A DNA stretch of 10,676 bases from Myxococcota bacterium (lineage in GTDB: Bacteria; Myxococcota; JACRCW01). The stretch is taken from positions 1 through 10,676 of the forward strand of contig JBFMGU010000327.1 in NCBI GenBank assembly GCA_040752415.1, given 5' to 3'. The notes under the pieces are model-generated. The model had not been told where the DNA came from, did no database searches, and saw only the letters and a list, made by a program, of their open reading frames with translations. How positions within the stretch are numbered: the stretch's first letter is position 1; each line of letters begins with the position of its first letter. The position numbers and the translations under genes were made by a program. Below are positions 462-816 of this stretch, piece by piece.

Positions 462-492
462 GCAAAGTGCAAAAAACGACGTTGCAGATTGC
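462..492. promoter_or_regulatory. Paired GCA-N3-TGC palindromic sites, putative activator (enhancer) sites
   Basis: GCAAAGTGC (462-470) and GCAGATTGC (484-492), starts 22 bp apart, with an A-tract between them. 482-492 is the exact reverse complement of 334-344. Confidence 0.55.
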
Positions 493-511
493 CAGTGGGT
501 ATGGCTCTCTT

Positions 512-754
512 GAAACGACGATCTTGGCTCCCGCCAATGAGATTGGCAGGCAATGTCATGCTGACGTCCTGCTCACCGCTCGACGGGCGGACGCACCTCG
601 CAGGACTGACTGTGGGAGCATCCAGCCGCCCCGGAGCCGCAGGTCATCCTTCCCGGGTCAGTCCTGCGCCGCTGTGACGCGGCCCATGGTGAGCAGGACG
701 TAGGCATTTTCATTGCCTGCCAATCTCATTGGCGGGAGCCAAGAGCGTCGTTTC
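512..754. repeat. Long imperfect inverted repeat (degenerate palindrome) centred at 632/633; weaker similarity extends to about 483-782
   Basis: 512-555 vs 711-754 are complementary at 43 of 44 positions. 564-577 vs 688-701 match 14/14 and 599-610 vs 657-668 match 12/12. The central CCGG (631-634) has partly paired flanks. Confidence 0.95.
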
Positions 755-816
755 CGGAAATCCACACCCAATGCAATGCGCACAGCCCTGACCTCCCCGG
801 TGATGCCCCTCCCGCT

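Follow-up and report, generated by a model that had tools for sequence, protein, structure and literature searches.

The window analysed here is a whole contig of 10,676 bp (C254; JBFMGU010000327.1) from the draft genome of a Myxococcota bacterium (GCA_040752415.1), and it carries a palindrome of ~300 bp in the ~700-bp gap that separates two divergent reading frames. This palindrome is probably an old copy of a two-layer, non-autonomous mobile element, a hybrid of a MITE (miniature inverted-repeat transposable element) and a REPIN, the hairpin-forming doublet of REP (repetitive extragenic palindromic) sequences; that it is one member of a dispersed, mobile, non-coding repeat family is almost certain. 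The inner layer, ~215 bp in length, would be an inverted doublet of two ~100-nt arms, each consisting of two hairpins (HP1 and HP2). The doublet would resemble the locus of a Y1 transposase gene on contig C24 minus the gene, as a REPIN resembles the locus of its REP-associated tyrosine transposase (RAYT). The product of that gene, P0001, may recognise the conserved hairpin blocks on single-stranded DNA and copy or maintain the arms; only copies with intact blocks would then propagate, leaving the blocks nearly invariant and the spacers different. The outer layer would be a pair of ~37-nt terminal inverted repeats (TIRs), on which a DDE-type transposase may have acted in the last moves of the capped copies. 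Most copies, that of the window included, would be REPIN-like doublets enclosed by MITE-type TIRs. The repeats and their arrangement are observed directly, and from them we infer which enzyme moves which layer. All counts below refer to a draft of 11.0 Mb in 520 contigs (C numbers; 68.9% G+C), which is 96.8% complete with 4.3% contamination, so that results of the type "found once" and "not found" are provisional.

The symmetry had been described in an earlier note made from the sequence alone, and its core was recovered as described. The three block pairs showed 43/44 (512–555/711–754), 14/14 (564–577/688–701) and 12/12 (599–610/657–668) matches, the centre lay between 632 and 633 within CCGG (631–634), and pairing continued into the centre at 8/11 positions (622–632/633–643). 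The outward continuation that had also been claimed was weaker, with 13/28 matches for 483–511 against 755–782 without gaps and 7/9 for the two GCA-N3-TGC sites. An independent repeat search returned arms at 493–555/711–773 (63 nt, 89%), 558–577/688–707 (90%) and 599–621/646–668 (78%). The palindrome folds far beyond chance: the RNA fold energies were −196 kcal/mol for the plus strand and −206 kcal/mol for the minus strand, compared with −116 ± 5 and −118 ± 6 kcal/mol for the shuffles (z = −15.4 and −14.4). Of 200 dinucleotide-shuffled sequences, not one was as stable. The placement between divergent frames was likewise borne out, with a minus-strand frame from ~145 that looks signal-peptide-like by eye and a plus-strand frame at 846–1331, 64 bp downstream of the palindrome. 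It is also correct that the window itself contains no transposase gene; the matching Y1 gene lies on C24. The parts of the window's copy are as follows.

~497–769: whole element, 273 bp with its caps
483–496: left outer flank, outside the terminus; the adjoining 9 bases are ATTGCCAGT
497–533, plus strand: left TIR module; its first 24 nt (497–520) have 3 mismatches to the TIR pattern
530–550, plus strand: left copy of HP1, a local mini-hairpin with the stem ...GCCAAT / ATTGGC... and the loop GAG; the most conserved block of the family (0.98)
564–577, plus strand: HP2 5' block of the left arm, containing GTCCTGC (0.97 conserved)
578–598, plus strand: left-arm spacer, specific to the arm type and not complementary to the right-arm spacer
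599–610, plus strand: HP2 3' block of the left arm, containing GCAGGAC (0.96 conserved)
611–656: variable centre with CCGG at 631–634; the position held by the Y1 gene at the C24 locus
657–668, minus strand: HP2 3' block of the right arm, a pairing block
669–687, minus strand: right-arm spacer; its arm type is not that of the left arm
688–701, minus strand: HP2 5' block of the right arm, a pairing block
716–736, minus strand: right copy of HP1, with its motif at 720–732 on the minus strand
733–769, minus strand: right TIR module with its terminus at 769; above 3 mismatches to the TIR pattern and more decayed than the left
770–782: right outer flank, the counterpart of 483–496

The six inner blocks of this copy agree with the family consensus, its longest pair at 43/44. 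The bases ATTGCCAGT match the 9 bases past the right terminus at five positions, and the flanks are at best a decayed target-site duplication. With three mismatches in the left TIR, more in the right and such flanks, the window's copy looks old.

Related copies are spread over the genome. BLAST of 401–860 gave matches on dozens of contigs, and a single-sequence nhmmer search gave 108 hits merging to 54 loci, 23 of which lay within 350 bp of a contig end, so that the family breaks the assembly. The core 13-mer was counted 105 times. A search with a one-arm profile recovered 83 arms, including 29 convergent doublets with an HP1-to-HP1 span of 179–221 bp, a number to be read as at least 29 in a draft of 520 contigs; the other arms were about ten mid-contig singlets, ten arms cut by a foreign sequence, a few arms at contig ends, and two single arms bracketing a gene. 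To the question whether the copies are single or always inverted doublets, raised by the earlier note, the answer is thus a mixed one: mostly doublets, some singlets, and one pair of single arms split by the Y1 gene. An all-versus-all comparison of the flanks that could be tested, 49 for the 29 doublets, gave 100% matches only as same-contig overlaps of neighbouring doublets, and the remaining similarities (72–95%) came from adjoining repeats. Since the flanks share only other repeats or such overlaps, the copies lie at different loci and are not duplicate contigs. The doublets are extragenic, 28 of the 29 overlapping high-GC3 frames (rich in G+C at third codon positions) by no more than 60 nt as judged with a crude GC3-based gene caller. 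For 16 doublets the caller found a gene on each side; these genes were oriented ++ in 6, −+ in 5, +− in 3 and −− in 2 cases.

From the outside to the inside, an arm consists of the ~37-nt terminal module, HP1, a variable linker, the GTCCTGC block, a variable spacer, the GCAGGAC block and the variable centre. Over 68 arms the three blocks were conserved at 0.98, 0.97 and 0.96, compared with 0.64–0.67 for the terminal module, linker and spacer. The selection on the blocks that had been suspected from the window alone therefore holds at the family level, and the same blocks are conserved at the other loci. The idea that the spacers between them had decayed locally does not hold. In 23 of the 24 doublets with two full arms, the arms belonged to different 85%-identity clusters, with particular pairings recurring 7, 5 and 4 times, and the median identity was 74% between an arm and its own partner but 96% between an arm and the best arm on another contig. 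This fixed pairing of arm types, together with the contrast in identity, shows that a few master types are copied as whole doublets. The invariant blocks amid diverged spacers are the footprint of propagation requirements and not of decay at the window's locus.

The GTCCTGC and GCAGGAC blocks are complementary both within one arm and between arms; in the window, 564–577 pairs with 688–701 across the palindrome or, alternatively, with 599–610 inside its own arm. Each arm can thus fold on its own as HP1 plus HP2. RNAalifold retained only HP1 and the outer HP2 pairs, the interior of HP2 varying by subfamily with no common fold, and three of four single arms folded as HP1 plus HP2 when treated as single-stranded DNA.

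The outer layer was examined in an alignment of near-identical copies with their flanks. The copies have sharp termini that start with GGG(C/T)G(C/T)GGCTC, and direct repeats of 8–9 bp stand just outside them. The TIR is ~37 nt long; at up to three mismatches its pattern matched the genome 76 times, and the reversed control gave no match. The same TIR module caps two other non-coding composite families. These composites are palindromes of 330–850 bp with HP1 halves at their ends and with interiors that are unrelated and internally repetitive:

Type B composites: C42:18036–18643, C479:1400–2178, C71:188–1033
Type C composites: C357:4012–4342, C197:922–1252

A scripted check compared 9 bp outside each end of 20 candidate terminus pairs. 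Duplications of 9/9 were found at C24, C36, C197 and C401, of 8/9 at C135 and C317, and of 7/9 at C99; the weaker pairs reached 6/9 at five loci, 5/9 at the window's copy, and 4 or fewer at seven, five of which are apparently spurious. Three further duplications were read by eye from the alignment at C171 (8/9), C6 (8/8) and C94 (8/8). Those at C24, C36, C197 (9/9) and C317 (8/9) lie within the HP1 loop, and several such insertions in the loop account for a 49-bp spacing of HP1 motifs. The other six (C401, C135, C99, C171, C6 and C94) are at sites unrelated to HP1 and constitute solid evidence. Target-site duplications of 8–9 bp are made by DDE transposases and not by Y1 enzymes of the IS200/IS605 type. 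We therefore consider it likely that the TIR layer was moved by a DDE enzyme. Some arms and doublets have no TIR module, an example being the doublet of C63, which also shows no flanking duplication.

Several results count against this role of a DDE enzyme. In a control with shuffled pairings, 9.1% of the pairs reached at least 7/9, because many flanks share the HP1 9-mer. At C42, C71, C357 and C479, the HP1 halves outside the termini are inverted rather than direct (6/9 as direct repeats), so that not every flank is a duplication, and the window's own flanks are among the poor ones. No partner gene with these TIRs was recovered from the five families searched, in a draft that may have lost multi-copy contigs: PF01610 (ISL3), PF00872 (IS256), PF13586 (DDE_Tnp_1_2) and PF01548 (IS110) gave no match, and neither of two PF01609 (DDE_Tnp_1) genes has a matching TIR alongside, the one on C499 having inverted repeats of its own.

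The inner layer, in turn, leads to a gene. Only two proteins of the genome matched PF01797 (Y1_Tnp), P0001 and P0002, which are 39% identical to each other. P0001 is a protein of 134 aa encoded on C24 (76.8 kb) between flgE-like and motA-like genes. Its gene is bracketed by inverted single arms of the palindrome family (54 nt at 80%, plus HP1, 26 nt at 100%) and stands at the site that corresponds to the CCGG centre of the window's copy. These bracketing arms are without the TIR module, and a complete capped doublet lies directly upstream. Among motif pairs spaced 250–8000 bp apart, with the C472 interior left out, no pair but that around P0001 enclosed a known coding gene. The larger composites (C42, C479, C71 and C357) were considered as RAYT carriers and rejected, as their interiors hold only frames that overlap on both strands and the genome has no third PF01797 match. 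In the flanks of P0001, the most frequent 16-mer has 66 copies genome-wide. For comparison, flanking 16-mer counts of 57 for Group 2 RAYTs, 57 and 140 for REPIN-associated RAYTs, and 25–32 for insertion sequence (IS) elements are given in PMC5581495; the abundance at P0001 is in the range of the REPIN-associated RAYTs and above that of the IS elements.

P0001 appears intact, with the motifs DHVH, WQ and YVESQRTHH and a Pfam Y1_Tnp score of 59.6 bits, and it aligns to the IS608 TnpA over the HUH and Tyr motifs. P0001 has few relatives, all of them distant: a search of 5.8 billion proteins returned eight other proteins at E ≤ 1e-5, the closest 45–46% identical; one of the eight is annotated in its source as RayT and another as IS200/IS605. 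Among 300 sampled genomes from the rest of the phylum, no match exceeded 34% identity. P0002 has the same Y---Q--HH signature. It is encoded at the start of its contig (C12:24–440; locus L011), with two units of another double-hairpin repeat in tandem behind it (L011:441–640). That repeat is local, with three BLAST hits, all on C12, and a best 16-mer of 13 copies. As a further observation, the flgE-like and motA-like neighbours of P0001 (C24:4400–7732; L012) indicate that flagellar parts are encoded in this Myxococcota genome.

Nine loci of other genomes and phyla with homologous Y1 genes, 29–42% identical, were examined. The motifs DH-H, WQ and Y---Q--(H/R)H are present at every one, and at five the gene is bracketed by inverted arms of 28–73 nt:

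L033, Sandaracinaceae metagenome-assembled genome (MAG): arms of 73 nt, 86%
L034, "Deltaproteobacteria" MAG: two blocks, of 33 and 28 nt
L035 (1399–2006), Thermomicrobiales MAG (Chloroflexota): arms of 60 nt, two hairpins readable per arm; the gene has an in-frame stop
L039 (1279–2075), Anaerolineae MAG (Chloroflexota): arms of 54–56 nt, two hairpins readable per arm; doublets on both sides
L015, G297: arms of 42 nt

At L014 palindromic repeats are present on one side only. The arm sequences differ between genomes, and several have hairpins within each arm, as read from the printed arms; the arm of L033 has 12 matches in its own genome. The recurrence of the bracketing at homologues argues that the association of gene and arms is functional and not a chance landing. 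Taken together, these data make a functional tie of the arms to the Y1 enzyme likely.

This tie also has evidence against it. Since Y1 enzymes make no duplications, those present at the capped copies argue against P0001 as the last mover of these copies. Bracketing arms are absent at three of the nine homologous loci, the dispersed arms of the Sandaracinaceae genome had an inverted partner at none of five loci examined, and the gene neighbourhoods of the homologues are unlike that of P0001. P0001 falls below both NCBIfam cut-offs, with 51.7 bits against 55 for IS200 (NF033573) and 25.7 against 80 for RAYT (NF047646). The single-arm folds are only modest (z = −2.3, −2.3, −0.3 and −3.9), and the HP2 stem is invariant, so that covariation cannot separate local hairpins from a long rod.

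Four other explanations were weighed against the two-layer element. If the copies were classical MITEs only, all of them derived by internal deletion from an insertion sequence of the DDE type with these TIRs, the Y1 gene would merely lie in one bare doublet, or have captured it, and would play no part. The 76 TIR matches, the 8–9-bp target-site duplications, the sharing of the TIR with two other non-coding composites, and the established inability of Y1 enzymes to leave such duplications all fit this view. It is nevertheless unlikely, given that the arms around P0001 have no TIR module, that bare arms and the bare C63 doublet without flanking duplication exist, that the homologous Y1 genes of other genomes and phyla are bracketed by long inverted arms of their own at five of nine loci, that conservation is much higher in the inner blocks than in the TIR, and that the DDE partner was not found in the draft among the five families.

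We regard as still less probable a pure REPIN-RAYT system, in which P0001 moves everything and the direct repeats stem from insertion into pre-existing tandem modules and not from staggered cuts. Many flanks are indeed HP1 halves, the 49-bp HP1 periodicity shows tandem or nested modules, four composites have inverted HP1 halves outside their ends, and P0001 is the only transposase seen with matching flanks. The six duplications at sites unrelated to HP1 (C401, C135, C99, C171, C6 and C94) and the sharp termini common to families with unrelated interiors speak against such a system.

A host-functional element at this locus, whether a structured non-coding RNA (ncRNA), an RNA rod that pairs with itself or a duplicated cassette regulating the two divergent genes in both directions, is very unlikely. 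In its favour, the fold is very stable, the 846–1331 frame begins 64 bp downstream, the blocks are intact though the window's TIRs have decayed, and mobile repeats can in general be co-opted. Rfam 15 gave no match at E ≤ 1 over the whole window, a consensus scan of 100–900 for promoters and terminators gave no site, the element occurs in all orientations of the flanking genes among the 16 doublets, and the spacers of the two arms are unpaired, so that a full rod is not maintained. Of the four candidates that the earlier note had offered, the REPIN/MITE-like element accordingly stands, on 54 loci, 83 arms and 29 doublets, and the ncRNA, the RNA rod and the regulatory cassette, without an Rfam, promoter or terminator match, are unsupported. 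Lastly, a fold-back chimera near a contig end, which that note had also raised and which the position within 500 bp of the start of this short contig, from an assembly in many pieces, might suggest, has a negligible probability and is excluded in practice, because the arms differ (89% and lower, with different spacers) where a chimera would be perfect, and 28 other doublets have the same build, with flanks unique or repeat-only where testable and with the two arm types recurring, for example at C483 (90% over 257 bp).

Among the genomes searched, the repeat family is known from this Myxococcota draft only. The 300-bp DNA had matches in none of 30 relatives and the TIR pattern in none of 12. 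An exact 20-mer was found in no stretch of the genome contig collection searched; its occurrence in two metagenome contigs was rejected as chance, the match being confined to the 20-mer itself. An 18-mer allowed one mismatch matched 79 times in its own genome; in 400 other genomes of the phylum it gave a single match in each of three, with one match for the reversed control. The lineage is thinly sampled: one genome is available from its family and two from its class. Among the papers that a literature search listed for Myxococcota or Myxococcus, none mentioned REP or MITE.

The repeats themselves appear to be targets of another sequence. Ten arms are cut at one fixed position in the GCAGGAC block by the same foreign multi-copy sequence, at the following positions:

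One end of the insert: C5:35636, C11:34358, C27:52, C42:111, C94:118, C161:52
Other end of the insert: C247:11143, C248:104, C367:98, C422:2339, C119:18596

The junctions overlap by GG, and the ends of the insert run to contig ends, its interior being absent from the assembly. It resembles an insertion element whose targets are these repeats. An IS110 element was considered and rejected, as PF01548 had no match in the draft, and no convincing frame was visible in the 219 extra bases of C119. Two further abundant 16-mer families (~196 and ~155 copies), unrelated to the palindrome element, indicate that the genome is unusually repeat-rich. The best match to the SbcD model TIGR00619 scored 34.7 bits against a cut-off of 77.65 (C110:1286–1561), and no clear SbcD was recognised in the draft, which may bear on the tolerance of long palindromes. 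In the window, the product of the plus-strand frame 846–1331 is small and Cys-rich, with a hydrophobic N-terminal stretch and no Pfam match, and the frame contains an internal repeat with a period of 147 bp (1029–1060/1176–1207). The remaining genes are ordinary, encoding a PAS histidine kinase, a sigma-54 activator, a GAF protein, an Agd3-like protein, a DUF58 protein and an EF-hand protein.

With a defined repeat family, a candidate enzyme and candidate recognition blocks, a puzzling palindrome becomes a tractable system. In practical terms, these repeats should be masked before other long palindromes of this genome are interpreted. A broader reading, which we put forward tentatively and hold to be somewhat less than an even chance, is that Y1 enzymes of the TnpAY1 subclass 1.2 type run REPIN-like systems of their own in Myxococcota and Chloroflexota, the giant arms of which hold two hairpins each. 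The RAYT/REPIN way of life would then have arisen a second time, independently, from an IS200-like ancestor, and the doublet described here would have been captured between DDE-type TIRs and become movable by two unrelated chemistries. If the link to the Y1 enzyme is true, subclass 1.2, listed by its describers as not REP-associated, would gain a DNA partner and a likely role, and REPIN-like systems would extend to Myxococcota and possibly Chloroflexota. The C24 locus is a near-literal form of the hypothesised route by which the flanks of an IS200-like gene fuse into a doublet, and the TIR-capped copies would offer a rare example of signals for two transposition mechanisms on a single small element.

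Compared with known systems, the capped copies share with bacterial MITEs, non-autonomous elements with TIRs and target-site duplications (PMC5896051, PMC3184786), their small size, non-coding nature, multiple copies, TIRs and, in a number of them, 8–9-bp duplications, and one TIR is found here on several families with different interiors. They differ from MITEs in that no autonomous partner with these TIRs was found in the draft among the five families searched, in that the flanks of a Y1 gene gave rise to the interior, itself a long palindrome, and in that the interior blocks are better conserved than the TIRs. Unlike an IS200/IS605 element, P0001 stays below the IS200 cut-off (51.7 against 55 bits) and was found in one copy, and its flanks are inverted relative to each other instead of being asymmetric one-strand hairpins.

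REPIN-RAYT systems, known from Pseudomonas fluorescens and E. coli, are also similar. Here too, palindromic doublets outside genes are copied whole; a low-copy Y1 HUH gene is flanked by this repeat in inverted orientation ("single copy" being limited by the draft); the flanking 16-mer is abundant (66) and the P0001 gene is not duplicated; and, of two Y1 genes at 39% identity, only P0001 has a flanking repeat that is dispersed. REPINs are described as ~100 bp long with a ~14-bp palindrome in each REP, and as tied only to RAYTs of Groups 2 and 3 (bioRxiv 10.1101/2021.07.10.451892). The doublet here, at 179–221 bp (273 bp with caps) and with two hairpin blocks per arm, exceeds the usual REPIN two- to threefold in length. 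Next to HP1 the foot is ...TCCC(T/G), with no visible GT[AG]G, and the capped copies have TIRs and target-site duplications. Class 2 RAYTs are characterised by a Y---NP motif (PMC6006769); P0001 instead has Y---Q--HH (YVESQRTHH) and scores 25.7 bits against the NCBIfam RAYT cut-off of 80.

The classification of TnpAY1 enzymes offers two further points of reference, in Quentin et al. 2018 (PMC6006769); besides that paper, a literature search on the subject since 2018 listed PMC8266576. The class 3 "atypical REPtrons", for example of Solibacter usitatus, are described as intermediate between IS and REPtron, with the motifs Y----Q and NHVH, a core of 155 residues and the foot CnGA (PMC6006769). 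Our system is similar in having a Y1 enzyme nearer to IS200 than to RAYTs and high-copy, atypical secondary structures at the gene flanks, but P0001 has Y---Q--HH and DHVH, and no CnGA foot is evident. Subclass 1.2 is listed as low-copy, not IS-like and "REP: no", mostly in Cyanobacteria and Bacteroidetes (Quentin et al. 2018, PMC6006769), with a median length of 148 aa and 1.7 copies at 36% identity (PMC6006769). P0001 corresponds to it in the motifs DH[IV]H, WQ and Y---Q--HH, an assignment by motifs only, and the genome corresponds in having two copies of 134–146 aa at 39% identity. What sets P0001 apart from the subclass as described is its Myxococcota host and the long, structured arms that bracket it and are dispersed about 80 times in the genome, an arrangement to which the homologues of the Chloroflexota MAGs are similar.

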